A DNA stretch of 62,542 nt from an uncultured Bifidobacteriaceae bacterium. Its GTDB lineage: Bacteria; Verrucomicrobiota; Verrucomicrobiia; Limisphaerales; UBA11358. The notes below the pieces were generated by a model. It saw nothing but the letters and a program-made list of their open reading frames with translations. It searched no databases and was not told where the DNA came from. The stretch lies in assembly GCA_964413165.1 (NCBI GenBank), contig CAYPSF010000004.1, positions 1-62,542 on the forward strand. The letters run 5' to 3'. The first letter of the stretch is position 1. Each line of letters opens with the position of its first letter. The position numbers and the translations under genes were made by a program. Positions 10,999-44,112 of this stretch are shown one piece after another.

Positions 10999-12129
10999 AT
11001 GTTGAAACGGACGGCCCTTTTTGCCGCACACCAACGGCTCGGCGGCAAACTCATCGAGTTTGGCGGCTGGGAAATGCCCGTGCAATACACCAGCATCACG
11101 GACGAACACCTCGCCGTCCGCAGCGCGGCCGGCATTTTCGACATCTCCCACATGGGCGAAGTTACTGTCAGCGGCGCCGCCGCGGCGGAATTCCTCAATA
11201 TCATTCTTACCAACGACGTCCGGAAACTTGAACCCGGTGAGGGCCAGTACACCCTGATGGGCAACGAACGCGGTGGGGTGATTGACGACCTTTACGCCTA
11301 CCGGCTTTGTTACGAAGTGTTTCTGCTCATCATCAACGCCTCGCGCATTGAGCCCGATGTGGCCTGGTTGCAGGGCCAGGCTGCCCGGTTTGCCCGGTCG
11401 GGCGAATTGCGGTTGACCGACGCCTCGCACAATTACGCCGCCGTGGCCGTGCAGGGGCCCCGCGTGAAGGATTTTATCGAGGCCGGCATTCCCGGCGCTG
11501 CGGTTTCCGGCATGCGGGTGGACCGCGTAACCGGGTTGAAGAAAAATCAGATCGCCGGTTTTCCTTTTGCCAAAGCAGGCGTGCTCGTCTCCCGCACGGG
11601 TTACACCGGCGAGGACGGATTTGAAATCATGGGTTCGGACGAAGCCATCCAGCAGGTCTGGGACAAGCTGCTGGCCATCGGGCAGCCGGCGGGCATCAAG
11701 CCTTGCGGCCTGGGTGCGCGCGATACGTTGCGCACGGAAGTCTGCTATCCGCTGTATGGCCATGAACTCGACGAAAACACGACACCCATCGAAGCCGGTC
11801 TGGGCTTTTTTGTTTCCCTCGACAAGGGCGAATTCAATGGCCGCGCAGTTTTGGCGGCACAGAAGGCGGAGGGAACAAACAAGCAGCTGGTGGCGTTCAA
11901 GATGACCGACAAATGCGCGCCGCCCCGGCCGCAATATCCCCTCTGGGCGGGCGAAAAAAGCGTCGGTATTGTCACCAGCGGCACGCAAAGCCCGTCGATG
12001 GGCATCGGCATCGGGATGGGCTATGCGCCGCCGGAATCGGCGAAAGCCGGCGCGAATATTGAAATTGAGATCCGTGGCAAGCGCTTTGCGGCGGTCGTGG
12101 TGCCCAAGCCGATCTACAAAAAAAGTTAA
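10999..12129 (+). CDS. gcvT: Glycine cleavage system aminomethyltransferase T
   Basis: LKRTALFAAH, FGGWEMPVQY, FDISHMGE, SRTGYTGEDGFE, GLGARDTLRTE. Confidence 0.95.
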   Translation: MLKRTALFAAHQRLGGKLIEFGGWEMPVQYTSITDEHLAVRSAAGIFDISHMGEVTVSGAAAAEFLNIILTNDVRKLEPGEGQYTLMGNERGGVIDDLYAYRLCYEVFLLIINASRIEPDVAWLQGQAARFARSGELRLTDASHNYAAVAVQGPRVKDFIEAGIPGAAVSGMRVDRVTGLKKNQIAGFPFAKAGVLVSRTGYTGEDGFEIMGSDEAIQQVWDKLLAIGQPAGIKPCGLGARDTLRTEVCYPLYGHELDENTTPIEAGLGFFVSLDKGEFNGRAVLAAQKAEGTNKQLVAFKMTDKCAPPRPQYPLWAGEKSVGIVTSGTQSPSMGIGIGMGYAPPESAKAGANIEIEIRGKRFAAVVVPKPIYKKS

Positions 12130-12211
12130 ACCGTTGAATTGTTAAACCGTTGAATCGGGTGCGATTCTTGCGTTGCCACGGTTTAACGATTCACCCTTTC
12201 AACGGTTTGAC
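12125..12211. repeat. Octamer-array inverted repeat, copy 1
   Basis: GTTAAACC GTTGAATT GTTAAACC GTTGAATC - 23 nt - GGTTTAAC GATTCACC CTTTCAAC GGTTTGAC. Contains the gcvT stop. Confidence 0.85.
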
Positions 12212-12265
12212 GAAAAATGAATTTGAGAATATCCGCCAGCCGCGTATTCTGCGGGCCGAAAATTT

Positions 12266-12649
12266 ATGAGCAATGTTCCTTCCGATTTGAAATACACCAA
12301 ATCTCACGAGTGGGTGCGCGTCAGCGGTGACACGGCGACCGTCGGCATTTCCGACCACGCCCAGCACGAGCTGACCGACATCGTTTTTGTCGAGTTGCCC
12401 GACAAGGGGCGGAAGGTGAAGGCCGGCGAGGCTTGTGCCGTCGTGGAATCCGTCAAAACCGCCAGCGACATTTATTCGCCGATCAGCGGCGAGGTGCTCG
12501 AAACCAACCAGGCGGTGGTGGACAACCCGGCGCTGGCCAATACTGAACCCTATGGCGGCGGCTGGTTCTTCAAAATCAAATTGAGCAGTCCAGCCGAACT
12601 GAACGCGCTGCTGTTGCCGGAGGCTTACCAGAAGCAGATTGGCGGCTGA
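12266..12649 (+). CDS. gcvH: Glycine cleavage system H protein
   Basis: [27 protein letters not shown], lipoyl-Lys motif [19 protein letters not shown]. Confidence 0.96.
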
Positions 12650-12661
12650 CCAGGGCAAATC

Positions 12662-12901
12662 GTGAAAGTCCGCCTGTTTATCAAACCGTACTGCCCCTGG
12701 TGCGACAAGGCCATGCACTGGCTTGATGGCCAAGACATCCAATACGAAACCCTGGATGTCATTGCGGATGAAAAGGCGTATGCGGAGATGGTCCGGTTGT
12801 CCGGACAGGAACTCGCGCCGGTCATCGACGTGGATGGTAAAATCCTGGCCGATTTCGGCCCGGAAGAATTGGCAAAATTCTGGAAAACGTTAAACTGTTG
12901 A
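12662..12901 (+). CDS. Glutaredoxin family protein
   Basis: 79 aa, CPWC active site, cis-Pro motif LAPVIDVDG. Confidence 0.85.
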   Translation: MKVRLFIKPYCPWCDKAMHWLDGQDIQYETLDVIADEKAYAEMVRLSGQELAPVIDVDGKILADFGPEELAKFWKTLNC

Positions 12902-13005
12902 ATGGTTGAAACGTTAAATCGCAATATGATAACAGCACCCGGGAAACAATCCGACCAGCGAGCACCGTTGGCCGGTTCAACGGTTCAACGATTCACCAAT
13001 TCACG
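12889..13005. repeat. Octamer-array inverted repeat, copy 2 (overlaps grx stop and lipA 5' end)
   Basis: GTTAAACT GTTGAATG GTTGAAAC GTTAAATC ... GGTTCAAC GGTTCAAC GATTCACC AATTCACG. Confidence 0.8.
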
Positions 13006-13873
13006 CCCCCGGCTCCCCGATTGGCTGCGTATTACGCTGCCCACGTCGGACAGTTTCGCGCGCACGCGCAGCCTGCTGGACGAGCTGAAGCTGCACACGG
13101 TCTGCGAAAGCGCCAAGTGCCCGAATCATTGGGAATGCTGGAGCAAGGGCACGGCCACGTTCATGATTGCCGGCGACCGCTGCACCCGCGCCTGCGGTTT
13201 TTGCGCGGTGTCCACGGCCAAACCGTTGCCGCTCGAGGCGGACGAACCCCGGCGTGTGGCCGAGGCTACCCGGCGGATGAAGCTGCGGCATATCGTCATC
13301 ACCGCCGTCGCGCGCGACGATCTGGTGGACGGCGGGGCGGAACATTTCCGGCAAACGGTCGAGGCCGTGCGCGAGTTGAATCTAGGCATTGTCATTGAGG
13401 TGCTCGTGCCGGATTTCAATGACAGCGAAGTTGCCATTGACGCGGTGCTGGCGGCGAACCCTCACATTTTCAACCACAATCTCGAAACGGTGCGGCGGCT
13501 GACGCCGGACGTGCGCCACCGTGCCACGTACGACCGTTCGTTGCACGTGTTGCAGACGGTGAAGGCGAAGCGCGGCGACACAATTTACACCAAATCCGGC
13601 ATGATGCTCGGTCTGGGCGAGTCGGAAGCGGAAGTTCTGGTGGCAATGGAGGATTTGCGCCGGGCCGGGTGCGACATCCTCACCCTGGGCCAGTATCTCC
13701 AGCCGACGTTAAAGCATTTGCCGGTGGTGGAATTTATTTCCCCCGCGAAATTCGACGAATTGGGCCGGCGGGCCGGGGAGCTGGGCTTTGTCCACGTGGC
13801 CAGCGGGCCGATGGTGCGAAGTTCCTACCACGCCGACGAGTTCAACCTGCCGTCAATGTCCCGGCAGGGATAA
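12902..13873 (+). CDS. lipA: Lipoyl synthase
   Basis: CESAKCPNHWEC motif, radical-SAM CTRACGFC, NHNLETV, GQYLQP, RSSYHA. Exact start uncertain (12902 or 12926). Confidence 0.95.
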   Translation: MVETLNRNMITAPGKQSDQRAPLAGSTVQRFTNSRPRLPDWLRITLPTSDSFARTRSLLDELKLHTVCESAKCPNHWECWSKGTATFMIAGDRCTRACGFCAVSTAKPLPLEADEPRRVAEATRRMKLRHIVITAVARDDLVDGGAEHFRQTVEAVRELNLGIVIEVLVPDFNDSEVAIDAVLAANPHIFNHNLETVRRLTPDVRHRATYDRSLHVLQTVKAKRGDTIYTKSGMMLGLGESEAEVLVAMEDLRRAGCDILTLGQYLQPTLKHLPVVEFISPAKFDELGRRAGELGFVHVASGPMVRSSYHADEFNLPSMSRQG

Positions 13874-14476
13874 ATTGCGCCGTATAAAAATAAAAATGGC
13901 GAGGCCGATGCCGACAAAGCCCACGGCAAAGGCGATGAACATGATGGTCTTCGTCAGTGTGCGCGCCTGATCCAGCGTTTCGGCGGTGCGTTTTTTCTCC
14001 GCTTCCCGGAAGACCGCCAGTTCCTTTTCGACCGTGGCGATGGCTTCCTCGCTCTTGAGCTGGAAGGTAAGCCATTTTTCCCCGGACCCCTTCCATTCCC
14101 CGGGCCGGCGTTCGAGGGTTTCAAGCGAAGGAGGTTGGAAACCCCAGCGGGCCCAAAAAGGCGCGTCTTCCTGCGTCCATAGCCGGAGAACCCCATTGTG
14201 ACTGGCAATGGTCTGGATGCGTTCCCAGAACAACAACCGCGCGGCATCAGCTACGGAGAAATCCGTGTACCCTTCGCTGTGGAGCAGGGCGTGCGGGCCG
14301 TTTATTTGAAGGCCGATCGCGCCGACGATTTGTCCCTCGGCGGTTTCCACCACCTGGAATTCCGTAAAGCGCCTTTCCAATTCTTCCGCGGGAAAGCGCA
14401 TGGAATTCCAAAGCCCGCGCAGCGTTTGAAAATCGTCCGTGGTGGCACGGCGGATGCGAAGGGTGGACGGACTCAT
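13853..14476 (-). CDS. GNAT-fold protein with coiled coil and C-terminal transmembrane helix
   Basis: IRRATTDD, GQIVGAIGL and FWARWGF GNAT landmarks, hydrophobic IMFIAFAVGFVGIGLAIFIFI. Confidence 0.6.
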   Translation of the reverse strand: MSPSTLRIRRATTDDFQTLRGLWNSMRFPAEELERRFTEFQVVETAEGQIVGAIGLQINGPHALLHSEGYTDFSVADAARLLFWERIQTIASHNGVLRLWTQEDAPFWARWGFQPPSLETLERRPGEWKGSGEKWLTFQLKSEEAIATVEKELAVFREAEKKRTAETLDQARTLTKTIMFIAFAVGFVGIGLAIFIFIRRNLSLPGH

Positions 14477-14503
14477 GCCCGTCTTATAGCAAGTCCGCAG
14501 GCC

Positions 14504-16021
14504 TCATTGCAACAGGAGCAGGTAAAAGAGTATCGGTTTTGCCGGGCTGACGCCGTTGGTGAATTTGAAATTTCCGGCGGCGTCAAACGGGTTGGTGGAC
14601 AGGCGCCCCCAGTTGATGGCCGGCACGGTGAGATCGGTGCCGGTGAGAACGAGATAATGCCCGCTATGAGGGCCGTTGGTACCGCTGATGACGAGGTTCG
14701 TTCCCGCAAGAAAGACATTGGTAACGGAGGGGACGGTATTCGTGGTGATGATCCGTTGGATGATGGAGTTGTTGCCGCCCCGGAGGTTGGCATAAAGGAT
14801 GTCGCCGTTGCTCGGATCGGCGGCGAAAGCGGAAACCCCCGCATCGGCAAACAGAAACTGGTTGGCGGTCACATTTGTGCCGTCGTAGCGCAACGCCCAG
14901 ATTTCACCGCTGCCATAATCGCCGTAGAGGTAGGCTCCGGCCAACTGGGGCAGGCGTGAACCGTGGTAAACAATGCCGCCAATGATGGCAATCCGGGTGC
15001 CAAAGCCTCCGTTGGTGTGGCCGTAGTCAATGATAGGATCGGTCCAGACGAATCCGATCGGCGCCGATTTCGGCCCCACGACGGTGCCTTCGCGATAGGC
15101 CCAACCGTAGTTGCTGCCGCGCTGGAGAATGTCAATTTCTTCCCGCGCACTCTGGCCCACATCGGCAACATACCATCGGTCACTGGGCGGATCGTACGTC
15201 ACCCGCCAGGGGTTCCGGAATCCCACCGCCCAGAATTCCGTGCGCACCTGGTTGGAGTTGATGGTGATGCTGTTGAAGCTGGTCGTCCCGATGAACGGAT
15301 TGTCGGCCGGAATCGCATAATTGGTCGGCGAGATGATGGCGGGATGGGGATTGGGATTTAAATTGCCCGGCAGTTTGTCCACATCAATGCGCATAATGGC
15401 CGAAAAGAAGTCGTTCGTGATGAGCTGGCTGTTGTTCTGGTTGTCGTTAGCCCCGCCTTCGTCCCCCAGCGGCACATAGAGATATCCGTCCGGGCCGAAA
15501 TGAATGTCGCCGGCGTTGTGGTTGGGCTGGTCGTCCGATTGTTGGATGAGACGCACCTCGGAGGTTGCATCCCCCTGGTTGGTGTTGGCCACCGAAACCT
15601 GGAAACGGGACAGGGTATCGCTGCGCCCGCCCCCGTTGGTGCGCGTGTAAAAAACATAGAAGAAACCATTCGATGCGTAGTTGGGATGAAACGCCAGGCC
15701 CAGCAAACCTTCCTCGCCGTTGACATCGGTCGACTCGCTGCTGAAGCCGACATTCACCCGGCCCGAAATGTCCATGAAGATGGTGCGGGTCGGGTTGGCC
15801 AGGTTGGTGATGACGATAATGCGTCCGTGTTTTTCGACAATGAACAAACGATTCGTTTCGCCCGGGGGCGTTGTCATGCAGACCGGGTTGGAAAAGACCA
15901 GGCTGGGAAACGCATTGGTGGGACTATAAGCCCGGGCGTTTGGCGTGCCAAGGGAAAGACCGATGGCAATAATAGAGATGACGACACCACCCGCGAAAAT
16001 ACTCCAAAACCTCTCTTTCAT
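14504..16021 (-). CDS. Secreted PQQ-dependent sugar dehydrogenase-like (GSDH) beta-propeller protein
   Basis: Signal peptide, EEGLLGLAFHPNY, NHNAGDIHFGPDGYLY, GFRNPWR, DVGQSAREEID. Confidence 0.88.
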   Translation of the reverse strand: MKERFWSIFAGGVVISIIAIGLSLGTPNARAYSPTNAFPSLVFSNPVCMTTPPGETNRLFIVEKHGRIIVITNLANPTRTIFMDISGRVNVGFSSESTDVNGEEGLLGLAFHPNYASNGFFYVFYTRTNGGGRSDTLSRFQVSVANTNQGDATSEVRLIQQSDDQPNHNAGDIHFGPDGYLYVPLGDEGGANDNQNNSQLITNDFFSAIMRIDVDKLPGNLNPNPHPAIISPTNYAIPADNPFIGTTSFNSITINSNQVRTEFWAVGFRNPWRVTYDPPSDRWYVADVGQSAREEIDILQRGSNYGWAYREGTVVGPKSAPIGFVWTDPIIDYGHTNGGFGTRIAIIGGIVYHGSRLPQLAGAYLYGDYGSGEIWALRYDGTNVTANQFLFADAGVSAFAADPSNGDILYANLRGGNNSIIQRIITTNTVPSVTNVFLAGTNLVISGTNGPHSGHYLVLTGTDLTVPAINWGRLSTNPFDAAGNFKFTNGVSPAKPILFYLLLLQ

Positions 16022-16155
16022 AGAGCATCACATTGGCGCACTCATGTCCAAAAGTCAAAGTCACCATGCAAGAAAGTTATTAACAGCCTTGAGACGACGG
16101 TGTTTGCTTTTTGCCCGACTTGTGCAAATCTTTGCGGGCAGAATCTGACTTGAAC

Positions 16156-16806
16156 ATGAATAATATAACTACCCGGCAATTATTGGAATCCCTGCATTGG
16201 CGGTACGCCACCAAAGTCTTTGATGCGGCCAAAAAAATCCCCGCCGATCTCTGGCAAACCCTGGAGCAGGCGCTCGTGCTTACCCCGACTTCTTATGGTC
16301 TGCAGCCGTACCGTTTTCTCGTCATCAACAACCCGGCCAAACGCACCGAACTGCTGCCGCATTCGTGGAACCAAAAGCAGGTCGTGGACGCTTCCCATTT
16401 TGTCGTATTCGCCGCCCGCACCAAAATGACCCCGGCCGACGTGACCAAACTCATCCAACGCACCAGCGACGTCCGAAAAATCCCCGCCGAGTCGCTGGGC
16501 TTTTACCGTGACATGATGCTCGGCGACATCGTTAACGGTCCGCGAGGCAAGGCCGCCCATGAATGGGCGACGCGTCAGACCTACATCGCCCTAGGCAACC
16601 TGATGACTTGCGCCGCCGTGCTGGGCGTGGACGCCTGCCCGATGGAAGGGCTGGTGCCGGCCGAATACGACCGTGTGTTGGGCTTGACCGCCAGTGACTA
16701 CGCGACGGTGGTGGCCTGCGCGCTGGGTTATCGCTCCGCCAGCGACAAATACGCCGGCCTGACAAAAGTGCGTTATGAAACCAGTGAGCTCGTCCAACAA
16801 GTTTGA
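16156..16806 (+). CDS. NAD(P)H-dependent nitroreductase (NfsB-like)
   Basis: WRYATKVFD, LTPTSYGLQPY, LGVDACPMEG, ACALGYR. Confidence 0.9.
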   Translation: MNNITTRQLLESLHWRYATKVFDAAKKIPADLWQTLEQALVLTPTSYGLQPYRFLVINNPAKRTELLPHSWNQKQVVDASHFVVFAARTKMTPADVTKLIQRTSDVRKIPAESLGFYRDMMLGDIVNGPRGKAAHEWATRQTYIALGNLMTCAAVLGVDACPMEGLVPAEYDRVLGLTASDYATVVACALGYRSASDKYAGLTKVRYETSELVQQV

Positions 16807-16836
16807 CCGGGCATGATTTGATCCCGGAACCGATCC

Positions 16837-17112
16837 ATGAAAAGGTCCCTGCGCTTGATTGCGGCGCTGCTCATGGCCGGCGCCGTCGTTTTTTGGGCGG
16901 CCGCCGGGGCGAACCGCGGCTGGACGAAGACGCAAATTCCGATTAAAACCATGGACCCGGTGACGGGCCTGGAAGGAATTCAATGGCAGGCCAAATTTGT
17001 TCCGGGCGTTGATTTTCTGGGTGCCGCCTTGCTCGGATCGGGCATCCTGGCCGCCATTTCATTTTTTACATCACGAAAACCAAAACAACCGCCAATCGAA
17101 ACCAAAATATGA
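16837..17112 (+). CDS. Small two-helix membrane protein, function unknown
   Basis: 91 aa with two hydrophobic segments. Overlaps the YceI start (ATGA), consistent with an operon. Confidence 0.65.
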   Translation: MKRSLRLIAALLMAGAVVFWAAAGANRGWTKTQIPIKTMDPVTGLEGIQWQAKFVPGVDFLGAALLGSGILAAISFFTSRKPKQPPIETKI

Positions 17113-17717
17113 AAACGAAACTAGCCATCCTGGCCCTCATGGGCGCTACCGGCATTGCGTTTGCCGCGCCCCAGACGTTTGACTTCAAAGACCCCAAGGG
17201 CATCAATAACGCCGGATTCAAGCTCGATGCGCCGTTGGAGGCCATCAACGGCAACGCCAGTGGCGTTTCCGGCACGGTTACCTTTGACCCGGAGAATCCC
17301 GGGGCGACCAAAGGCAAAATCGTCGTGACCACCGCCTCGCTCATGCTGCCCAACCCGATGCAACGAACCCATATGTTGAGCGATAAATGGCTTGATGCCG
17401 CAAAATTTCCCGAAATCAGCTTTGAAGCGAAGGAGTTCAAGAATGTCCAGAGCGCCGGTGTCACTACGACAGCCGATGTGACGGGCACCTTCACGCTCAA
17501 GGGAGTGTCCAAGGAGCTCACCGTGCCGGTAAAACTGACTTATATGAAGGACAAGTTGAGTGATCGCGTGCCGAACCTGAAGGGCGATCTGCTGGTTATC
17601 CGAGCCGGCTTCAGCATCAAGCGCGGTGATTTCAACATCAACCCGGGCCAGTACGAGGACAAGGTTTCCGACACCATTGAGCTCACCTTGAGCATCGCCG
17701 GCGCGGCGCCGAAATAA
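17109..17717 (+). CDS. YceI family protein
   Basis: Signal peptide, DAAKFPEISF, GTFTLKGVSKELT, FSIKRGDFNI. Confidence 0.88.
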   Translation: MKTKLAILALMGATGIAFAAPQTFDFKDPKGINNAGFKLDAPLEAINGNASGVSGTVTFDPENPGATKGKIVVTTASLMLPNPMQRTHMLSDKWLDAAKFPEISFEAKEFKNVQSAGVTTTADVTGTFTLKGVSKELTVPVKLTYMKDKLSDRVPNLKGDLLVIRAGFSIKRGDFNINPGQYEDKVSDTIELTLSIAGAAPK

Positions 17718-17780
17718 CCGGAGCTCTCCGTCGAGGAGCAGTTCCGGCTGGTCGAGATCAGGTGTTGGGTCAATTTGAAC

Positions 17781-17974
17781 TGTAGCGTCGGCTGTTTCAG
17801 CCGACAGGGTGCTGAGGGCATCGCACACTACAACAAACTGACCTGCCACCAAAAGACATTTCCGCAGAGTTGCGTCGACGGACAAAGTCCGTCCGTTCCC
17901 CCGTTAAAAGGGAGTTATTCGCGCGGTGATGTTGGTGGCGGCTGAAACATGACGTTTAGCGTCATGTTCCAGCC
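17781..17974. repeat. Cluster of REP-like hairpins
   Basis: TGTAGCGTCGGCTG-ttt-CAGCCGAC...CACTACA (17781-17832), GCCACCAA/TTGGTGGC inverted pair, and GGCTGAAACATGACG-ttta-GCGTCATGTTCCAGCC (17940-17974). Confidence 0.65.
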
Positions 17975-18027
17975 AGAATGGCCAATGGATACTTATCCTC
18001 CCTGACAAGCTCGTCCCAAATCCCGAC

Positions 18028-18264
18028 TTAGGCGCGTTTCTTGGCTTTGACCTTGGCCCAGCGGGCTTTTTGGGCCGCAACAATCCTGGCCCGGCCGGCC
18101 GCGCTCATCTTCCGTTTCTTTCTTTTCGCCGGTTTGGTCGCCAGCGCTTTGAACGTACCGTTCAAGGCCTGGTCGATGGCTTGCAGACGCCCTTCCAATT
18201 TGGTTTTCTCCGCGGTCAAAGACCGACGCAGTTTGGTGTACTGTTTGAGTGAGTCGTGTTTCAT
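18028..18264 (-). CDS. Small basic putative DNA-binding protein (coiled coil plus KMSAAGRARIVAAQKARWAK tail)
   Basis: 78 aa, very Lys/Arg rich, with its own promoter at 18284-18313. Confidence 0.7.
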   Translation of the reverse strand: MKHDSLKQYTKLRRSLTAEKTKLEGRLQAIDQALNGTFKALATKPAKRKKRKMSAAGRARIVAAQKARWAKVKAKKRA

Positions 18265-18283
18265 AATAACAATTGAGCCGTGG

Positions 18284-18313
18284 AATCTATCAGAAATCCA
18301 CTCCCGATGGCAA
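18284..18313 (-). promoter_or_regulatory. Sigma70-type promoter of the small basic protein gene
   Basis: Minus strand TTGCCA-N18-TAGATT with an extended -10 TG. Confidence 0.6.
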
Positions 18314-18364
18314 TGGGAGTTTTGGGGTTTGACAGGTGGCGATGGGTCCTTGCTTGAAAATCAA

Positions 18365-18457
<93 letters not shown>

Positions 18458-18641
18458 GCCGGAAACGATATTTTGGCTGCGCGCCCCGCCGGGCGCAATC
18501 TTTTCCGTCGGATGGACAAATGAATTTAGCCAGCTTTGAATTTCTGCCGGATAAATCCGGCGTTCCTATTTCAATACACAGCGCTAACGGCTGAATCCAG
18601 AGTTCCGATGGCGATAGGAACGCCGCATTCCTGTGGCAGCG

Positions 18642-35533: not shown

Positions 35534-35563
35534 TTGACGTGGCCAGACAGCCACCCTTAAGCT
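35534..35563 (+). promoter_or_regulatory. Sigma70-type promoter
   Basis: TTGACG-N18-TAAGCT upstream of the zinc-ribbon/ndk genes. Confidence 0.55.
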
Positions 35564-35606
35564 TATAGACCGTCCGGCGCATGAAGCGCAGGGCGGTATA
35601 GATTTT

Positions 35607-35795: not shown

Positions 35796-35799
35796 AATT

Positions 35800-36972: not shown

Positions 36973-37020
36973 GAATTCTGGTGGCGCGGAAGAAGGCCCG
37001 CTTCCGTTTGCGCTCTTGTT

Positions 37021-37105
37021 CTGCCGCCCCTGCCGGGGCTTTAGTTCGCTCTCCTTTTAACTCACGGCGACGCCGTGGGCTACTTTGTTTCGCCGCTCCG
37101 CGGCT
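37021..37105. repeat. Palindromic intergenic element (GCCGTGGGCTAC type)
   Basis: GCCCCTGCCGGGGC, CTCACGGCGACGCCGTGGG and CGCCGCTCCGCGGC hairpins between convergent genes. Confidence 0.6.
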
Positions 37106-37117
37106 GCCGCTTCAATC

Positions 37118-37519
37118 TCAGGCCCACAATGCCGGCGAATTTTGCAGCTTTTGCAGCAACCGCGCGTCCGCGGCGGGAAATTCGTAATCGGCCAGTTCCG
37201 GTCCGGCCACCCATTGCAGGGCCTCGCAGCCGAGCGGTCGCGGCTCGCCGGCGGGCAATCGACAGATGAAGAACTCCAGGCGGACGGTCTTCTCCGGGTA
37301 GGCGTGGGTAATGGATTCAAACCGGCCGCCAACGGCGATGGCCACGCCGAGTTCCTCGTGGATTTCGCGGACGAGGCATTGTTCGAAGGTTTCGTGCGGC
37401 TCACGCTTGCCGCCCGGAAATTCCCACAGTCCGCCGAGATGCGCCCGGGCTTGGCGCCGGGTGATCAGCAGTTTGCCGTCCCGGAAAATCAAAGCTGCAG
37501 CGACATCGATGGTTTGCAT
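37118..37519 (-). CDS. mutT: 8-oxo-dGTP diphosphatase
   Basis: HLGGLWEFPGGKREPHETFEQCLVREIHEELG Nudix box, HAYPEKTVRL, FPAAD. Confidence 0.9.
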   Translation of the reverse strand: MQTIDVAAALIFRDGKLLITRRQARAHLGGLWEFPGGKREPHETFEQCLVREIHEELGVAIAVGGRFESITHAYPEKTVRLEFFICRLPAGEPRPLGCEALQWVAGPELADYEFPAADARLLQKLQNSPALWA

Positions 37520-37523
37520 CGCA

Positions 37524-37612
37524 GTTAAATTGCTGAACCGTTACATCGTTGAACCGGCCCGGACAGCGTTGAATTTTCACGGTTAAACGAATACACCGTT
37601 CAACGGTTCAAC
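37524..37612. repeat. Octamer-array inverted repeat, copy 3
   Basis: GTTAAATT GCTGAACC GTTACATC GTTGAACC ... GGTTAAAC GAATACAC CGTTCAAC GGTTCAAC. Contains the ugd stop. Confidence 0.85.
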
Positions 37613-38897
37613 GACCAACGCTCTTGTAAACCCAGCCAAGCCGTTTCATTTCCGCGGGGTCGAACAGGTTGCGGCCATCGAACATGATGGGATGGGAGAG
37701 TGATTTGCGAGCGCGTTCGAGATCGAGCTTTTTGAACTCGTCCCACTCGGTGGCCACGACCAGCGCGTCACAACCCTCGGCCACGGCGTTCATATCGTCC
37801 ACGTAGGTCACATTCATGAGCACGGCTTTGGCCTTGTCGATGGCTTTGGGATCGTGCACGCGCAGGGCCGCGCCCTCCTTTTGCAGGCGCTGGCAAAGGT
37901 CAATGGCCGGGGACATCCGGACGTCGTCGGTGTTTTGTTTGAAGGCGAGGCCGAGCACGCCGATGGTTTTATCCTTGAGCACCCAGAGGGTGTCGGTGAT
38001 TTTTTTGACAAAGCGCTCCATTTGCTCCGCATTGATGTGCTGGACTTCGCGGAGCAGGCGGAAATCGTAGCCGTTTTGCTCGGCAATTTTGATGAAGGCG
38101 CTGAGGTCTTTGGGAAAACAGCTGCCGCCGAAGCCGATGCCCGCGTTCAAGAAGCGGCGGCCGATGCGTTCGTCCAGGCCCACGCCGGCGGCGACTTCCT
38201 GGACATTGGCCCCGGTGGCCTCACAAATGGCGGCGATGGCGTTGATGTAGGAGATCTTGAGGGCGAGGAAGGAATTCGAGGCGTGCTTGATGAGCTCGGC
38301 GGAACTGATGTCGGTGACCACAATCGGCGCGTTAAATGGCGCGTAGACCTCCTTCATGGCGGCAATGGGCCGCTCGGAGCGAACCCCAATGACCACGCGG
38401 TCGGGTTTCATCAAATCGCCGACGGCGAAGCCTTCGCGCAGAAACTCGGGGTTGCTGACCACATCGCAGTCCACCTTGGCCGGGCAATAGCGTTTGATGG
38501 TTTCGGCGACTTTTTCGCCGGTCCGGACGGGCACGGTGCTTTTGTCCACGACAATTTTATAAGTGGTCATGGCAGCGGCGATATCGCGGGCGACCCGTTC
38601 GATGAAGCTCAAATCCACCGAACCGTCGGCCTGGGGCGGCGTGGGCACGGCGATGAAGATCACCTCGGATTTCTGGACGCCCTCGGCGGTGCTGCTGGTG
38701 AAGGCCAGCCGGCCGGCGGCGACATTCTTTTTCACCAATTCCTCGAGCCCCGGCTCATAGATCGGTATGCCGCCCGACTGGAGCAGCTTGACCTTGGCCG
38801 TGTCGTTATCCACGCACAGGACCTGGTGGCCGACTTCGGCGAAGCAGGCGCCGGTGACCAGTCCAACGTAACCGGTACCGATAAGGGTGAGCTTCAT
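37608..38897 (-). CDS. ugd: UDP-glucose 6-dehydrogenase
   Basis: GTGYVG, KSTVP, SNPEFLREG, GFGGSCFPKD, GLAFKQNTDD. Confidence 0.95.
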   Translation of the reverse strand: MKLTLIGTGYVGLVTGACFAEVGHQVLCVDNDTAKVKLLQSGGIPIYEPGLEELVKKNVAAGRLAFTSSTAEGVQKSEVIFIAVPTPPQADGSVDLSFIERVARDIAAAMTTYKIVVDKSTVPVRTGEKVAETIKRYCPAKVDCDVVSNPEFLREGFAVGDLMKPDRVVIGVRSERPIAAMKEVYAPFNAPIVVTDISSAELIKHASNSFLALKISYINAIAAICEATGANVQEVAAGVGLDERIGRRFLNAGIGFGGSCFPKDLSAFIKIAEQNGYDFRLLREVQHINAEQMERFVKKITDTLWVLKDKTIGVLGLAFKQNTDDVRMSPAIDLCQRLQKEGAALRVHDPKAIDKAKAVLMNVTYVDDMNAVAEGCDALVVATEWDEFKKLDLERARKSLSHPIMFDGRNLFDPAEMKRLGWVYKSVGR

Positions 38898-38900
38898 GGC

Positions 38901-39599
38901 TCAGGGGGTGGGCTTGAACGAAACCGCGGGCGTGGTGACGGTCGAAGCCGACGGTTGTTTTATTTTCAATTCCATGATGCGCAACCCGGCCTCCGCGGCG
39001 AGCGGGCTGTTGGGCATGGCGCGCATGATATCCTGATAAAGATTGATGGCGTCGGTTACTTTGCCCTGGCGTTCATTGATTTGAGCCATACCAAACCTGG
39101 CCATATTGACCGGCATCTCCTCGGTATAGGTGTTATAAATCCGCTGGTAAGTGCCGGCGGCCAGATCCGCCTTGCCCTGGGCGTCCTGGCTGGAGGCCAG
39201 CCCGAGTGAGGCCTGGGCGGCGAAGAAACTGCTCGGGTATTGATTGAGAAACTCCTGGAACTGCGTCTGGGCGTCGGCATAGTTTCCGGCCTCAAACAAC
39301 AGCGTGGCGCTTTGCAACAGGGCCCGTTCTCCGGCGGTCGTGTTGGGATAGTCCCGGGCAATTTTCAGGAACAGGCTGGCCTGCTGTCCGGGCCCGGCAC
39401 TGCGCTGGTCCGACAACATCAGTTGCGTCAACGCCTGGCCGGCGGTGATCTGCTTTTGATTCTGCTGCCAGGTGTAAAAGTAAATCACACCGGCGGCGAC
39501 AATGACGATGCCGCCGGCTGCCATCAGCCGGGTCTTGTTGGCTTCAAACCAGGGCCACAGTTTAAATAAAAAGGTCGCCGGTGCGTCTTGCAATTCCAT
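38901..39599 (-). CDS. Membrane-anchored tetratricopeptide-repeat protein (YfgM-like)
   Basis: N-terminal transmembrane helix, then helical repeats (GNYADAQTQFQEFLNQYP, GKVTDAINLYQDI). Confidence 0.8.
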   Translation of the reverse strand: MELQDAPATFLFKLWPWFEANKTRLMAAGGIVIVAAGVIYFYTWQQNQKQITAGQALTQLMLSDQRSAGPGQQASLFLKIARDYPNTTAGERALLQSATLLFEAGNYADAQTQFQEFLNQYPSSFFAAQASLGLASSQDAQGKADLAAGTYQRIYNTYTEEMPVNMARFGMAQINERQGKVTDAINLYQDIMRAMPNSPLAAEAGLRIMELKIKQPSASTVTTPAVSFKPTP

Positions 39600-39669
39600 A
39601 AAGAATCAACAGTTTTTCGTTCAAAGCCCCAAAAAACAAGCCTGAAATCAATCGAACTGAAGCATCAGG

Positions 39670-40491
39670 CTAAAACCCCCTCAAATTGGTGCTGGAACGC
39701 TGGGGCAAACCGGGGGCGGGGACGCGCTTGAGCACGAGGTATGCGATGCCGTTCTTTTCGCAATACTCGCGTTTGCCGCCCTTGTCGCCGTCCTCGTTCA
39801 CCGCATATATGTCCGGTTTCAGGCACCGGATTTCCGGATCGGCATCCAGCCAGCCGTCGCCGCTGGAAATCAGCGCCTGCTTGACGTATTTGATGGATCC
39901 GACGAGGTAGCGGCGTTCGGCCTGGGGCAGGAGGGGATGCCCCTCGCCTTTGAGCAACCGGATGTTGGCGTCGTGACCGACGACGACATAAAGGTCGCCA
40001 TAAGCGCTGATCTCCTCGAAAAAGCGCACGTGGCCGGAGTGAAACCAGTCGTAAGTACCGGTGGCGATCACCTTTTTTCGGCCGGGGACGGCGGGCAAGG
40101 GCGCCGGTTCGGGAAAACCCTTCAATTGATCCTCACCCAGCACGCAATATTCGAGGCCTTGCCGCCGACAAAACGCCTGCCGCGCTTCGTTGTCCGGACC
40201 GGCTTCATCCACCCACATTTGAGGTGGAGAATCATTCGCGGCCGGAAGTTCATCGCGAGTCACCGGGCCGGTAACGGGCAGGACCCGGCTGACGTAACGC
40301 ATGGCGCTGAGAAAGTAAAGACGTTCGGCTTCGGGAAATTTCGGCGGCTGACCGGTGAGCTCCCGAATCGTGCGATCCGGCCATAGCCGCACGGTCAGTG
40401 CGCCCAGCGTCGCGGCCGCTTCCAGGAAACGCACGTGCTGCGAGCGGAGATCATCGAACGCGCCGGTGACGACAACTTGGCGGGAATTCAT
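39670..40491 (-). CDS. Tandem-domain cytidylyl/adenylyltransferase family protein
   Basis: The C-terminal domain has GTYDWFHSGH (HxGH). The N-terminal domain has a degenerate GAFDDLRSQH. Confidence 0.8.
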   Translation of the reverse strand: MNSRQVVVTGAFDDLRSQHVRFLEAAATLGALTVRLWPDRTIRELTGQPPKFPEAERLYFLSAMRYVSRVLPVTGPVTRDELPAANDSPPQMWVDEAGPDNEARQAFCRRQGLEYCVLGEDQLKGFPEPAPLPAVPGRKKVIATGTYDWFHSGHVRFFEEISAYGDLYVVVGHDANIRLLKGEGHPLLPQAERRYLVGSIKYVKQALISSGDGWLDADPEIRCLKPDIYAVNEDGDKGGKREYCEKNGIAYLVLKRVPAPGLPQRSSTNLRGF

Positions 40492-41285
40492 CGGTGGGTG
40501 GTGCGAACAGTGACTTGAAATGACCCCGGGACTTTTTCCTTTGAGGCGACGAGCAGGTAGCCGCCGCCGCAGCCGGAGAACATCGCGCCGGGAAAATTAT
40601 TCTGGTAAACCTTCAACAGCGCCTTCAAGTCGCACTTGATGAGCGGGTGCTGGACGACGTGCGGCAGGAGTTTTTCCCAGCAAAGCATGGTTTGGTTGAG
40701 GGAGGTCCCCAACGCGTTTACGTCCATCTGCCGGATTGCGTCAAAACAATCCTTGCCGGTTTGGCCCAGCCGGAGGATCCACTTCGGGTCGAGATTTTTC
40801 CTGCCCAACGGACTGTAGCCATCCGGGCGCGGTTCGACCGGCAGCAGGTGCAGGATTTTTTCCAGCCAGCGAGCCGGTCGCATCCGGTCCAGAGTCTCGA
40901 TGTGTGACGGGAACACGCCGCCGTTGGCCGCGAAATCGTAATCCAAGCGGTTGATGCCCGGATAAACCAGGCCGATCATGTCCTGGGACCCGCTGGGTTC
41001 GGCCTTGCCATGGTTTTCGGCCTCGTAAAGTTCACGGACCAGTTCCTCCGGCGGGCGGGCGGGCAGGCGGCCCCGCCATAATTTTGTGGCTACGGCCCGC
41101 GTTCCGCTGGCGCAACCGGACCGGTCCATCACCCGAAAAGTCGGTTCCAGCGCCACGACAACCATGGAACCGGGTGGCCGGGGATTCAGCCGGGAGACGA
41201 AAGGCTGGTCAATCCAGCCACCCGCCAGTTGCAAGCGGTTGGGAATGGCACCGATGACCTCGGTGACCAACGGCGTTTTTTTCAT
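40488..41285 (-). CDS. GHMP-family sugar kinase-like protein
   Basis: PNRLQLAGGWID, GSQD and FSGCGGGYLL resemble HddA-type kinases. The ATP loop is atypical. Confidence 0.7.
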   Translation of the reverse strand: MKKTPLVTEVIGAIPNRLQLAGGWIDQPFVSRLNPRPPGSMVVVALEPTFRVMDRSGCASGTRAVATKLWRGRLPARPPEELVRELYEAENHGKAEPSGSQDMIGLVYPGINRLDYDFAANGGVFPSHIETLDRMRPARWLEKILHLLPVEPRPDGYSPLGRKNLDPKWILRLGQTGKDCFDAIRQMDVNALGTSLNQTMLCWEKLLPHVVQHPLIKCDLKALLKVYQNNFPGAMFSGCGGGYLLVASKEKVPGSFQVTVRTTHR

Positions 41286-42325
41286 TCCACAACGCGTTTG
41301 CCCTTCTTCCGGTCATGATATTGCTCTTTGATCCACTTGTAAGTGGCGGCCAGCCCGTCGTCCAACGACGTTTTCGGCTCCCACTTGAGCGTCTTTTTGA
41401 TGAAAGTGTTGTCGCTGTTGCGGCCGGCCACACCGCGCGGCGCCGTCAGGTCGTAATGCCGCTTGAGTTTGACGCCCGCAATCTTTTCCACCTTGGAAAG
41501 CAGTTCGTTGATGGAGACGAGTTCGCTGGAACCGAGGTTGATCGGCGTCGCAATCAGGTCATCGCAATGCATGATCATGTCGATGCCCTTCACACAATCG
41601 TCGATGTACATGAAACTGCGCGTCGCCGTGCCGTCGCCCCAGATGGTGATGTTCATGTCCTGCTTGTCGATGGCGGCGATGACCTTGCGGCACAGGGCGG
41701 CGGGGGCTTTTTCGCGGCCGCCATCCCAGGTGCCGTGCGGGCCATAGACGTTGTGGAAGCGGGCGATGGCGGTTTTCATGCCGCGTTCAGCCCAGTATTC
41801 CTGGCAAAACATTTCGGAAACGAGCTTCTCCCAGCCGTAGCCGCGCTCGGCCATGGCCGGATAGGCGTCGGATTCCTTCAACGCGCGAACTTTCGGGTCC
41901 TGTTGCAGCAGAATATTGTAGGCGCACGCCGACGATGAATAAAAATAGCGGCGGACGCCCGCCTGATAGGCCGCCTCGACCATATGGGTGTTGATCAGGA
42001 TGCTGCGCAGGCACTCCACGCGGAACCGCTCGATGAAGCCCATGCCGCCCATGTCGGCGGCCAGCTGATACACCTCGACGGCGCCTTCACAAACGCGCCG
42101 GCAATTTTCCTCGTGGCTGACATCCAGGCAAATGGATTCGACCCCCGGCACCTTCAGATACCATTCATAAAGCGGTTTCTTGTCCACCGCCCGGATGCGG
42201 GTGAAGCCCTTGTTTTTGAAATACAGGGCCAGATTGCCGGCAATGAAGCCGCCGGCGCCGGTGATGACAATCAAATCGTCTTTTTGCAACTGGGGATCTT
42301 TTTCGATGAGCCGTTTCTTTTCCAT
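41282..42325 (-). CDS. GDP-mannose 3,5-epimerase-like NAD-dependent epimerase
   Basis: GAGGFIA, LAADMGGMGFI, YSSSACAY, GYGWEKL, GTWDGGREKAPAALCRK, GRNSDN. Confidence 0.88.
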   Translation of the reverse strand: MEKKRLIEKDPQLQKDDLIVITGAGGFIAGNLALYFKNKGFTRIRAVDKKPLYEWYLKVPGVESICLDVSHEENCRRVCEGAVEVYQLAADMGGMGFIERFRVECLRSILINTHMVEAAYQAGVRRYFYSSSACAYNILLQQDPKVRALKESDAYPAMAERGYGWEKLVSEMFCQEYWAERGMKTAIARFHNVYGPHGTWDGGREKAPAALCRKVIAAIDKQDMNITIWGDGTATRSFMYIDDCVKGIDMIMHCDDLIATPINLGSSELVSINELLSKVEKIAGVKLKRHYDLTAPRGVAGRNSDNTFIKKTLKWEPKTSLDDGLAATYKWIKEQYHDRKKGKRVVE

Positions 42326-42481
42326 ATTACCTTTCCATTTTAATCTGGTTCAAGATGTCTGCCGTCATTCGTTTTCAAAAACTGGTCGTTCATACTATCC
42401 GCCATCAGCCCCCGCTGCAATAGCGTTCCTCGCCAAAACCGCCGTATTTTCAGCCGATTTTGGACATTTCTGTCTTATTTC

Positions 42482-42510
42482 TTGACACAGTAATAGCGGT
42501 GAACTATTAG
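42482..42510 (+). promoter_or_regulatory. Sigma70-type promoter with an overlapping inverted repeat
   Basis: TTGACA-N17-TATTAG, with TAATAG-N7-CTATTA covering the spacer and -10. Confidence 0.5.
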
Positions 42511-42709
42511 TAAGCTTCCCCGCTATGCAGGGAGGAGAAAGTTTGATTAGTTGCCGGACGTAATGATGATGTCGATTTGGTGCTGGAGGAACGACTAAGC
42601 AATCATTCGTATGATTTGTTCGGGTCATTTATAAACAACTTATGACAGGCAAGAGTGGCGGGAATCAAACAGCCAATCACGGAAACAACAAGAAATACAT
42701 TTTGCGGCA

Positions 42710-43750
42710 ATGCTTTACAACAAACCTGTTTCTTTAATCTTTGCGATTCTGACTTCGGTTATCCTTGGGGGCAACGCCAGCCAGGCCGATACGGTTTACG
42801 TGTCCAACACCGGCGCGGGCACCATTTCGCGAATTGGTCCCAGTGGCGCCTCATCCATCTTTGCCAGCGGCCTGGACAGTCCCAAGGACCTGGTTTTCGA
42901 CGGTGCGGGCAATCTCTACGTTGCGGATTCCGGCGACGGAACCATTTTGAAATTCGACCTGGCTGGAAACATGTCCACCTTTGCCACCGGCTTGAACGGC
43001 CCTTCGGCGCTGGCTTTCGACCCGTTCGGCAACCTTTATGCCGGCAGCCAAGGTAGCCAGACGATCTCAAAAATCGATTCCAGCGGGCATGTCTCCAGCT
43101 TTGCCACGGGAATAAGCTTCTGTTCCGATGGCGCTTATCTGGCCGCAGACAACGCCGGGAATATCTTTGCCAACACCCTTCGCACCGTTGAACAATTTAA
43201 TTCCACCGGGACCCGGTCCACGCTGATGAGTTCTTTCAGTTCGGTCGAGGGGATGGCGGTTGACGTCGCCGGACATTTTTACCTGGCCTTGCAGAACGGA
43301 TGTAATATCCATGGCAATGGCGGTCTGTTGACCAGCATCGCCGACTATCCGGCTCCTTACGGCAGCAGCGGCGCTCCTCCGCCCGGCAGCATCGACACCC
43401 CCTGCGATCTTGTTTTTGACCTGGATGGCAATCTTTTTGCCACCTTTGCGAGCATGTACAATGACGGAATCGGCGGGCCGACCATGGATAACAACGTCCT
43501 GATCAGGTTCGGTGCCGACGGGCACAACAGTGTTGTCGCCACCGACATTGGCGGAACGTACATAGCTGTTATGGGGGGCGTTCAGTCCGTGCCGGAACCG
43601 GGAATTTGGGCGTTGGCCGGTGGGATGGCGGCCATCCTGATTGTCCGGAAACGGCTGATGGGTCTGCTTCACCCGGGGCTGGTGCTTGAATCTATTCCGA
43701 CCTGCGTCCAAAACTCTGAACGTCGCCGCAAAACCTGCCTCCGTTCTTGA
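42710..43750 (+). CDS. NHL/SMP-30-like beta-propeller protein with a PEP-CTERM signal
   Basis: Signal peptide, repeats FDGAGNLYVAD and FDPFGNLYAG, then VPEP-GIWALAGGMAAILIV-RKR. Confidence 0.85.
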   Translation: MLYNKPVSLIFAILTSVILGGNASQADTVYVSNTGAGTISRIGPSGASSIFASGLDSPKDLVFDGAGNLYVADSGDGTILKFDLAGNMSTFATGLNGPSALAFDPFGNLYAGSQGSQTISKIDSSGHVSSFATGISFCSDGAYLAADNAGNIFANTLRTVEQFNSTGTRSTLMSSFSSVEGMAVDVAGHFYLALQNGCNIHGNGGLLTSIADYPAPYGSSGAPPPGSIDTPCDLVFDLDGNLFATFASMYNDGIGGPTMDNNVLIRFGADGHNSVVATDIGGTYIAVMGGVQSVPEPGIWALAGGMAAILIVRKRLMGLLHPGLVLESIPTCVQNSERRRKTCLRS

Positions 43751-43802
43751 CTCTCCAATCGCAATTGCCAGACTGTTTGAACCAGTCAGGATGGTTTCCG
43801 GT

Positions 43803-43894
43803 GGAGAGATGGCCGAGTGGCTGAAGGCGACGGTTTGCTAAACCGTTATACGGGTTAAACCGTATCGGGGGTTCGAATCCCCCTCTCTCCGCCA
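43803..43894 (+). tRNA. tRNA-Ser(GCT)
   Basis: GGAGAGATGGCCGAGTGG, anticodon arm ACGGT-TTGCTAA-ACCGT, long variable arm, GGTTCGAATCC, encoded CCA. Confidence 0.97.
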
Positions 43895-43945
43895 TCCCGT
43901 TTTTTTGGATTTTAGCTTCCCGCGGCCTGAAAGCACTTTGTGGAA

Positions 43946-43974
43946 TTGACATCGGCCGCCTGCATCCCTAGCCT
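43946..43974 (+). promoter_or_regulatory. Sigma70-type promoter of purA
   Basis: TTGACA-N17-TAGCCT. Confidence 0.75.
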
Positions 43975-43980
43975 CTTTTT

Positions 43981-44026
43981 GCAAAGACACGCGCTTTGCC
44001 CCGAATTCACGTTCGGGGATTTTTGT
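43981..44026 (+). promoter_or_regulatory. Two-hairpin leader with a terminator-like structure upstream of purA
   Basis: GCAAAG-N7-CTTTGC, then CCCGAA-N6-TTCGGG-GATTTTTGTT. Confidence 0.5.
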
Positions 44027-44041
44027 TGCCGCGGGCGACAC

Positions 44042-44112
44042 GTTAAATCGTTGAACCGCTCCATGGTTGAACCGGCGGGCGATTTAACGGTTAAACGATT
44101 TGACGGTTCAAC
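44042..44112. repeat. Octamer-array inverted repeat, copy 4
   Basis: GTTAAATC GTTGAACC GCTCCATG GTTGAACC - 7 nt - GATTTAAC GGTTAAAC GATTTGAC GGTTCAAC. Confidence 0.85.

Follow-up and report, generated by a model that had tools for sequence, protein, structure and literature searches.

Four AT-rich hairpin elements built of tandem octamers lie at junctions of housekeeping genes in a contig of a Pedosphaera-like Verrucomicrobium (CAYPSF010000004.1, assembly GCA_964413165.1; the whole 62,542-nt stretch that was analyzed is referred to here as the window). The same octamer unit occurs in several phyla, both in elements that enclose a gene and in elements that do not, and the enclosed gene belongs to the four-helix-bundle family PF05635/TIGR02436. 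The reading favored here, at a probability of about one half, is that the four loci are members lacking an open reading frame (ORF) of a class of hairpin elements with inverted short-tandem-repeat arms, the full-size members of which carry a PF05635/TIGR02436 gene in the loop.

Octamer Arms in the Window and Around Four-Helix-Bundle Genes

Copy 1 (12125-12211) consists of a left arm at 12125-12156 (GTTAAACC GTTGAATT GTTAAACC GTTGAATC), a spacer at 12157-12179 and a right arm at 12180-12211. In copy 2 (12889-13005) the corresponding parts are at 12889-12920, 12921-12973 and 12974-13005; in copy 3 (37524-37612) they are at 37524-37555, 37556-37580, where the spacer contains an extra GTTGAATT, and 37581-37612; and in copy 4 (44042-44112) they are at 44042-44073, 44074-44080 and 44081-44112. 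These coordinates agree with those proposed in the initial annotation, as does its description of four inverted 8-bp units per arm: every copy parses as four GTTRAAYN units, a spacer and four NRTTYAAC units, and the left and right arms of all four copies are 32 nt long. The spacers, which had been described as non-conserved and 7-53 nt long, measure 23, 53, 25 and 7 nt in copies 1-4 and are mutually unrelated. Some units are degenerate (e.g., GCTCCATG, GTTACATC and GTGTATTC), and three arms show a 16-nt super-period (GTTAAAYN GTTGAAYN) in Tandem Repeats Finder. In general terms, the window copies have two inverted arms of ~25-35 nt that are able to pair as one stem, each arm being made of at least three tandem units of 7-9 nt. 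The two-unit motif GTTRAAYSGTTRAAY, with up to two mismatches allowed, occurs 24 times in the window vs. 2.04 ± 1.5 times in shuffled sequences, none of 100 shuffles reaching 24, and 22 of the 24 matches fall within the four elements. A scan for four-unit arms (at least 22/28 matches) found no further arm anywhere in the 62.5 kb. The predicted hairpin of copy 1 is clearly more stable than those of shuffled sequences (z-scores of -4.8 and -3.5). The earlier impression that the number of units is kept is correct inside the window and fails elsewhere, where arrays of 3 to at least 14 units, including one-armed arrays, are found.

Relatives and members of other phyla have further copies. A scan for three units of the GTTRAAYN type, with one genome per species, returned at least 119 loci (designated by L numbers), many of them plain tandem arrays; gene calls outside the window are ORF-based. 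Among the matches listed, inverted arms of about four units, a number that is partly an ascertainment effect of the four-unit window of the arm scanner, are carried by Verrucomicrobial metagenome-assembled genomes (MAGs; L042, L054, L062, L078, L088, L092, L094, L077, and L037), an acidobacterial MAG (L048), a gammaproteobacterial MAG (L074) and Bacteroidota (L021 from Pontibacter, L034, L044, L087 from Hymenobacter, L111, and L124). The GTTRAAY arm comes first in 23 loci vs. 4, the 4 being complex multi-array loci. A viral control set of 99 pattern-match loci has few inverted pairs, with a polarity of 4 vs. 2, and no four-helix-bundle gene was found in it. One-armed arrays are also found between divergent gene starts (L100, L055, and L037). 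In the Verrucomicrobial MAG L090, a 14-unit one-armed GTTGAATC array (7176-7302) and a shorter array 4.5 kb away (2613-2659) are both followed by the same ~40-nt sequence (gttttactccg..agcgat.ccggaagaaag...), which suggests a larger repeat.

In Hymenobacter (L087), arms of the form GTTAAATG GTTGAATT GTTAAATG ... CCATTTGA CCATTTAG x2 enclose a 131-aa PF05635/TIGR02436 ORF, and the gene-bearing element has an ORF-less neighbor of its own unit family at a distance of ~900 bp. Same-family octamer arms flank the PF05635 genes of the two homologues that were fetched, L329 from Pontibacter and L330 from a member of the Chitinophagaceae, where the gene lies between sdhA and sdhB; the arms of all three loci have the form GTTAAAYN...NRTTTAAC. 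The suggestion in the initial annotation that some copies might enclose a four-helix-bundle ORF is borne out by these loci. Its proposal that the window copies are the empty form of a gene-carrying element is thus right in kind, given the octamer arms around PF05635 genes in Hymenobacter, Pontibacter and Chitinophagaceae, and falls short in that no such gene is found in this lineage, the sequence covered being the window and ~1.1 Mb of relatives. All named closest homologues of the L087 protein are from Bacteroidota (Cytophagales or Chitinophagaceae), with none from Verrucomicrobia among the named matches. At none of the loci examined did the arms enclose an ORF other than the four-helix-bundle gene, although not all window ORFs were scanned for REP-associated tyrosine transposases (RAYTs; REP, repetitive extragenic palindromic sequence). 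Arms of the GATTCAAC type were sought with a consensus four-helix-bundle protein fused to the arm peptide DSTIQRFN, and 0 of the 120 top matches carried such a tail.

The association of the four-helix-bundle gene with tandem repeats extends to other unit families. In a wider sample, all 14 of 14 four-helix-bundle genes are flanked by tandem 7-8-mers, clearly inverted in 11 of the 14, with units such as TCAGGAG, ACAGGTG, AAGGGAA, AGCTAAA, GGGTGTA, GACAGAA, and TACGTAA. The sample includes a true 23S rRNA intervening sequence (IVS) from an Azospirillum plasmid (L223), with GACAGAG/GACGGAT units. Heptamer arrays flank four-helix-bundle genes in Nostoc, Anabaena, Aulosira, Calothrix, and Geminocystis plasmids, and in plasmids of Pseudanabaena (L218, 601-960) and Anabaena sp. 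90 (L221, 595-963) the gene lies between cas6 and cas4 with CTAAAAG and ACAGGTG arrays. At a more distant homologue from Erysipelotrichaceae (L118), GTTGAATN arrays are found only upstream of the gene; there, four different tandem arrays stand in a row in one intergenic region, at 775-1000 in reverse-complement coordinates (GTTGAATN four times, ATCTTCAA three times, CTTGCTA n times and TCAATTA four times). Repeat-armed four-helix-bundle genes are also seen at 3001-3381 of L330 (sdhA/sdhB) and at 1501-1851 of L327, between two aconitase-family ORFs of a member of the Bacteroidales; these insertion sites are operon junctions, like those of the ORF-less window copies. PF05635/TIGR02436 is the S23p family of 23S rRNA IVS proteins; its members are homologous to Avd of diversity-generating retroelements, and many of the matches also hit PF22296 (bAvd).

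The closest described relatives of the window copies in architecture are the ORF-bearing 23S rRNA IVSs of Coxiella, Leptospira and Azospirillum (L223), the one case of the proposed class that has been studied. These share the terminal inverted repeat with a stem of ~28-32 bp and arms of tandem 7-8-nt units in variable number (GACAGAT in Coxiella; GACAGAG/GACGGAT in L223), and their loop may or may not contain a PF05635 gene. IVSs are classed as selfish elements. In Coxiella, the IVS has a 28-bp terminal stem with tandem GACAGAT heptamers, the number of which varies between strains, and RNase III cuts in the stem (PMC4990558). Unlike these IVSs, the window copies are ORF-less, sit in mRNA junctions and use the octamer GTTRAAYN. 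All four lie between protein-coding genes, and no rRNA was detected in the window by Rfam, so they are not strict 23S rRNA IVSs, which occupy helix 9, 25, or 45.

The window copies resemble REPs, bacterial interspersed mosaic elements (BIMEs) and REPINs (hairpins formed by REP pairs) in being dispersed, lineage-specific intergenic palindromes between co-directional genes, with inverted pairing and proposed roles in mRNA stability. REPs do not have tandem-unit arms; they are single imperfect palindromes of 20-40 nt, and their stems are 5-13 bp with a conserved GTAG/CGTC tetranucleotide tag and an association with RAYTs (Di Nocera, 2013; PMC3733652). In agreement with the initial annotation, the window copies are not classical REPs, as they have no such tag and their arms are 32 nt of tandem octamers. 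Nor are they a CRISPR, since the arms are inverted with a single pair per locus and no direct repeats of 24-48 nt with unique spacers are present, or terminators, as the arms are AT-rich and no GC stem followed by a U-run is found at the elements. Terminator prediction gave no site at copies 1, 2, and 4 and, at copy 3, nothing beyond a 5-bp minus-strand sub-stem. Measured against miniature inverted-repeat transposable elements (MITEs), the terminal inverted repeats are present while an internal sequence common to the copies and a parent insertion sequence (IS) is absent, the spacers being unrelated. The copies are thus not typical MITEs, and no parent element was found.

The short tandemly repeated repetitive (STRR) heptamers of cyanobacteria are similar in being intergenic and made of short tandem units (7 nt). 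STRRs are known as direct arrays and typing markers. In the STRR papers searched, neither an inverted 4+4 hairpin form nor a link to four-helix-bundle genes was found stated. Rickettsia palindromic elements and mycobacterial interspersed repetitive units (MIRUs) are small repeats that are tolerated in or between genes, where they are translated in frame or overlap stops and starts; they differ from the window copies in sequence and architecture and have no tandem-octamer inverted arms. Resemblance to an integron attC site was also considered: the unit fits the core-site GTTRRRY, its complement fits RYYYAAC, and both structures form an imperfect hairpin. However, attC has RYYYAAC at the 5′ side, GTTRRRY at the 3′ side and two boxes per arm, whereas the window copies have the reverse order and four units at 8-nt spacing. 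This candidate was rejected, the box order being reversed in 23 of 27 loci, with housekeeping neighbors and neither a cassette array nor an integrase. Sigma-70 promoters formed by the arms were rejected as well, there being no promoter call at the elements. Binding sites of CtrA, ArgR, LexA, and IHF and Ter-like sites were considered and dropped for misfits of spacing or consensus. Rfam searches at gathering and permissive thresholds returned no family match and only sub-threshold hits of miRNA models on the hairpins, and a verbatim search of the literature for the arm sequences gave no match.

Stop Codons, Start Codons and the N-Terminus of LipA

The genes next to the elements (gcvT, gcvH, glutaredoxin, lipA, ugd, NUDIX, and purA) were confirmed by Pfam and translation, which also support the placement of the gcvT, grx, and ugd stop codons inside elements in the initial annotation. 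On the plus strand, gcvT (10921-12129; GCV_T and GCV_T_C) overlaps copy 1 with its last codon and its stop TAA (12127-12129), which is part of unit 1; its true start is probably later than 10921 (the gene caller gave 376 aa). A promoter-like site for gcvH is found 3′ of copy 1 at 12223-12250. The glutaredoxin gene (grx; 12662-12901, plus strand) takes its last four codons (TLNC) and its stop from units 1-2 of copy 2, the TGA at 12899-12901 being in unit 2, and lipA (12902-13873, plus strand; LIAS_N and Radical_SAM) follows with 27-35 element-derived codons at its start. At copy 3, the stop TGA (37608-37610) of the minus-strand UDP-glucose dehydrogenase gene ugd (37608-38897) is formed by the outermost unit of the right arm, the first unit met on that strand, and the ATG (37517-37519) of the minus-strand NUDIX hydrolase gene (37118-37519) lies 4 nt beyond the element. 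Copy 4 is in the purA leader, as had been noted, and ends 8 nt 5′ of the ATG at 44121 of purA (44121-45389, plus strand).

This arrangement of stops follows a rule. A ribosome that enters an arm from outside meets TAA or TGA in all three frames in five of the eight arms and in two frames in the other three, because the period is 8 and every unit contains T-R-A. Read in the opposite direction, an arm is mostly an open reading frame. On either strand, the first-met arm brings the upstream reading frame to a stop after a few codons, and the far arm is open and either stops 4-12 nt short of the next start codon or is itself translated. With a stop-rich near arm and an open far arm, an element can therefore occupy tight junctions without destroying the neighboring genes. 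Arms abut an ATG in L077, and the element directly abuts the gcvH ATG in L150, L155, L162, L164, L180, and L202. In L042 it lies just 5′ of an ATG whose product starts MKIDVLTLFP, presumably trmD. In L087, two convergent ORFs both terminate in the arms of the element, and long ORFs frequently end within an arm at other loci outside the clade too.

The most extensive overlap with a gene is that of copy 2 with lipA. In relatives without the octamer element, LipA starts MTTTELKPRPRLPEW; in the window, homology begins at RPRLPDW, directly after the right arm of copy 2. The sole in-frame starts are ATG 12902, which follows the grx stop without a gap (TGAATG), and ATG 12926, which belongs to the spacer of copy 2. 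Both are 5′ of the right arm, which is thus translated, as GSTVQRFTNS. Orthologues of copy 2 at grx/lipA are found in L140, L159, L202, L181, and L178, i.e., in at least six contigs including the window. In the first four of these, the grx stop is in unit 2 and the right arm reads (D/G)ST(I/V)Q.F... in the same phase as in the window, with the lipA ATG in the loop (L140, L159, and L202) or in the left arm, which is degenerate (L181). The L178 element is 5′ of an intact lipA start. Across four of the grx/lipA orthologues, unit positions 1-3, 5, and 6 of the left arm are almost invariant, and positions 4, 7, and 8 vary together with the spacer. Lineages that share this copy have only ~80-86% GcvH identity, which indicates that copy 2 is older than their divergence. 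Some copies are therefore old and have been co-opted, supplying the grx stop, the lipA start and the N-terminus of LipA.

Persistence and Turnover Among Relatives

The host is placed by PurA homologues at 86-88% identity, which carry the names Pedosphaera sp., Verrucomicrobiia, or Verrucomicrobiae; rhizosphere and peat metagenomes contain near-identical contigs. The sequencing runs in which the sequence was detected are DNA metagenomes, with no RNA run among those listed. Upstream of purA (43946-44027) are TTGACA (43946-43951), 17 nt, TAGCCT (43969-43974), the hairpins GCAAAG...CTTTGC and CCCCGAA...TTCGGGG, and a U-run. This leader, conserved in relatives with 88-94% PurA identity, has the look of a transcription attenuator and less that of a terminator for the tRNA-Ser gene that precedes it. 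Copy 4 is placed between the U-run of the conserved leader hairpin (43999-44027) and ATG 44121. Comparison of this junction in L208-L217 (88-94% PurA identity) shows that copy 4 is absent there: L208 has an unrelated palindrome (GTGGGACAGGC...) instead, a different one (TTTTGGGGACGGCG...) is found in L212-L217, the site is reduced to GCCGTCCGACGGCTTAACGAAACACAAC in L209 and L210, and L211 has 9 nt. Related populations from the same metagenomes have 14-34 nt in its place (e.g., TGAACCTCCGGCGCGGCTTTGGACGAAACAT). Copy 4 is thus lineage-specific. Both of its junctions resemble the empty-site CGACGGCTTAAC of L209, imperfectly. In L208, the closest purA relative fetched (94% PurA identity), three copies of a DDE_Tnp_1 transposase gene and two Transposase_20 (IS110-type) genes take the place of the region upstream of purA (1-9911).

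The purA/uppS junction of the window is filled by a fifth hairpin (45401-45469) of the same architecture and a different unit family, the GCAGAT/GCGGAT type (CGCAGATAT / CGCGGATTAA / CGCGATTTT ... AATCGGCAC AATCGGCAT AATCTGCGG). It ends 8 nt 5′ of ATG 45478, and its right-hand array is kept in L212 and L215. Directly 5′ of the gcvH and uppS starts, in many relatives as well, are three tandem 9-mers, AATCYGCGN (window 12223-12256 and 45440-45469; also in L132, L134, L146, L212, and L215). They overlap a promoter-like TTGNNN-N16/17-TAWTCT and may represent a clade-specific promoter architecture or a one-armed repeat array. At gcvT/gcvH, copy 1 has an orthologue in L129, where the promoter-like TTGAGA-N16-TAWTCT again comes next; an octamer element is also present in L178 and in the loci named above where it abuts gcvH, and most other relatives have different palindromes or nothing. 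At grx/lipA almost every relative has a long hairpin, with the unit families GTTRAAYN, CACAGAT/CACGGAT, CATCGAA, and, in reversed polarity, ATTCAAC...GTTGAAT.

Copies also leave traces in assemblies. Other contigs with different flanks join the left arm of copy 3 at 37524, and the end of L007 (1-26) departs from the window inside copy 1 (CGTTGAATCGTTAAATCGTTGCCTCGGCCA). The L007 end is an assembly join through another repeat copy, and assemblies break at the elements. A strain comparison with L003 is uninformative for the elements, as the two sequences are identical across the element region and differ only in a cluster beyond position 14294. Other repeats and RNAs were seen in the window as well: a further palindrome family at 52150-52250 (GGGGAGAGGG...CCCTCTCCCC) with an adjacent partial repeat, the motif of which also occurs in L055 and L133; a 26-nt inverted repeat (18544-18639; 81% complementary, halves 44 nt apart) between tRNA-Ser(GGA) and an ilvD-like gene; and an Acido-Lenti-1 RNA (RF01687; 37061-37105, plus strand; score 38.0 vs. 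a gathering threshold of 37), which is encoded on the strand opposite to the NUDIX gene and a short way downstream of it.

Competing Explanations and Biological Meaning

If the four loci are ORF-less members of the repeat-armed class, a sequence of events can be proposed. The copies, which sit in transcribed junctions of housekeeping operons, would have arisen by insertion, and an imperfect stem of ~30 bp is predicted to form in the transcript. If IVSs are a guide, the window elements are probably RNase III substrates in mRNA, and cleavage of the stem would separate or destabilize the flanking cistrons. A cognate four-helix-bundle protein that recognizes the tandem units may mobilize or maintain the copies in trans.

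Several observations weigh against this reading. Four-helix-bundle genes were found neither in the window nor in ~1.1 Mb of contigs from related Pedosphaerales nor among the Verrucomicrobial pattern matches, so that the link is cross-phylum only. Octamer elements are sparse in relatives, with 9 in 577 kb and none in ~100 kb (non-redundant) surrounding purA. The four window copies differ from recently transposed MITEs or REPINs in that they have no spacer sequence in common and lack near-identity, and a target-site duplication is not evident at copies 1-3, nor is there a clean one at copy 4. The initial annotation had proposed a mobile element; what indicates mobility is the one clear presence/absence polymorphism, that of copy 4, with no clean duplication, no near-identical copies and unrelated spacers. 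Moreover, the short alternatives at the purA site have one unit-like half-site on each side of a GC-rich center and form a small hairpin, and with such a seed-like hairpin insertion and in-situ arm growth are indistinguishable there. Folding z-scores are weak for copies 2-4 (-1.2 to -2.3). Finally, in-register matching of the arms at unit positions 4, 7, and 8 amounts to 135/276, vs. 127.6 ± 6.3 when arms are swapped between elements (p = 0.14), and in-register pairing is no better than pairing in shifted registers. In light of this permutation result, compensatory-looking changes between copy 1 of the window and that of L129 are anecdotal. Across 23 Verrucomicrobial elements, unit positions 1-3, 5, and 6 are conserved at 84-97%, position 4 is R, 7 is mostly T and 8 is mostly C. 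The complementarity of the arms thus follows from a unit consensus in opposite orientation and not from compensatory evolution of one helix, and since both arms obey the consensus, the stem can pair in several registers. Such a conservation pattern fits recognition, or generation, of the unit itself.

The most serious alternative, which we hold to be rather unlikely, is that the elements are cis-regulatory hairpins of the host, not mobile but evolving in place under selection for mRNA processing, stability or translational coupling. With the upstream stop in one arm and the next start in the loop or just past the other arm, a terminating ribosome would melt the stem and expose the next initiation region, and the arms would grow and homogenize by replication slippage and arm-on-arm templating. 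The TGAATG overlap of grx and lipA, the lipA ATG in the loop of L140, L159, and L202, and arms that stop 4-12 nt short of start codons are what such coupling would produce. Copy 1 does not have this form, as it is followed by a separate promoter-like site and not by a start codon, and the L087 element lies between convergent genes. Growth in place is in keeping with the long grx/lipA hairpin of lineage-specific units in nearly every relative, the small hairpin with one half-site per side already present at the copy 4 site of relatives, the range of 3 to 14 units with one-armed arrays, and the varying heptamer number among Coxiella strains. However, it does not account for the same octamer at four unrelated junctions of one genome and in several phyla, for Bacteroidota arms of the same kind that enclose a four-helix-bundle gene, or for the absence of pairing covariation.

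Both remaining explanations are less likely than the repeat-armed class and evolution in place. It is improbable that the copies are conventional non-autonomous transposable elements, whether a MITE of some IS or a REP/REPIN-like element that depends on a tyrosine transposase of the RAYT type for its movement, in which the arms would be transposase-binding terminal repeats. Terminal inverted arms of fixed polarity, presence or absence at the purA site, and contig breaks and chimeric joins in the repeat are all as expected of such elements, and several palindrome families occupy the same intergenic niches, as REP families do. Yet the spacers are unrelated, a clear target-site duplication and the GTAG/CGTC tag are missing, REP stems, at 5-13 bp, are much shorter than the arms, the only ORFs found between arms at any locus are four-helix-bundle ORFs, and some copies are stable over deep divergence. 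A phased protein-binding array on duplex DNA, such as a nucleoid-associated or regulatory protein bound to eight GTTNAAC near-palindromes 8 bp apart, is very improbable. It would account for the ~90% conservation of positions 1-3, 5, and 6, for pairing without covariation, for the near-palindromic nature of every unit and for one-armed arrays between divergent starts (L100, L055, and L037). However, the central base is R throughout one arm and Y throughout its partner, a strand polarity that is irrelevant to a protein that reads palindromes; spacing of 8 bp puts successive sites on different helical faces; the copies lie within operons and at coding ends rather than in regulatory regions; and no candidate protein was identified.

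The preferred reading, a class of repeat-armed hairpins with and without a PF05635 gene, can be extended, although the extension is speculative and unlikely to hold. Repeat-armed hairpins and Avd-like four-helix-bundle proteins might form one widespread, undescribed class of elements of which the 23S rRNA IVS is the visible tip. Each unit family (GTTRAAYN, GACAGAN, TCAGGAG, and others) would be read by a cognate pentameric protein that spreads or maintains ORF-less copies in trans at operon junctions, where they would donate stops, starts and RNase III sites. This would parallel the RAYT/REPIN system, though by another mechanism, which might be RNA-mediated.

PF05635/TIGR02436 is one of the large bacterial protein families without an assigned function, and to our knowledge it has been studied only in the contexts of 23S rRNA IVSs and, via its homologue Avd, of diversity-generating retroelements. 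The loci described here suggest that the natural habitat of the PF05635 gene is the loop of a hairpin with short-tandem-repeat arms, and they offer a functional hypothesis for the family, namely the binding of tandem units. For annotation, they carry a warning: where starts and stops at such junctions are element-derived, start calls, such as that of lipA, are easily wrong. Ultimately, these observations suggest that ORF-less hairpins of this class populate operon junctions in several phyla and that copies can become parts of host genes as stop codons, start codons and N-termini.

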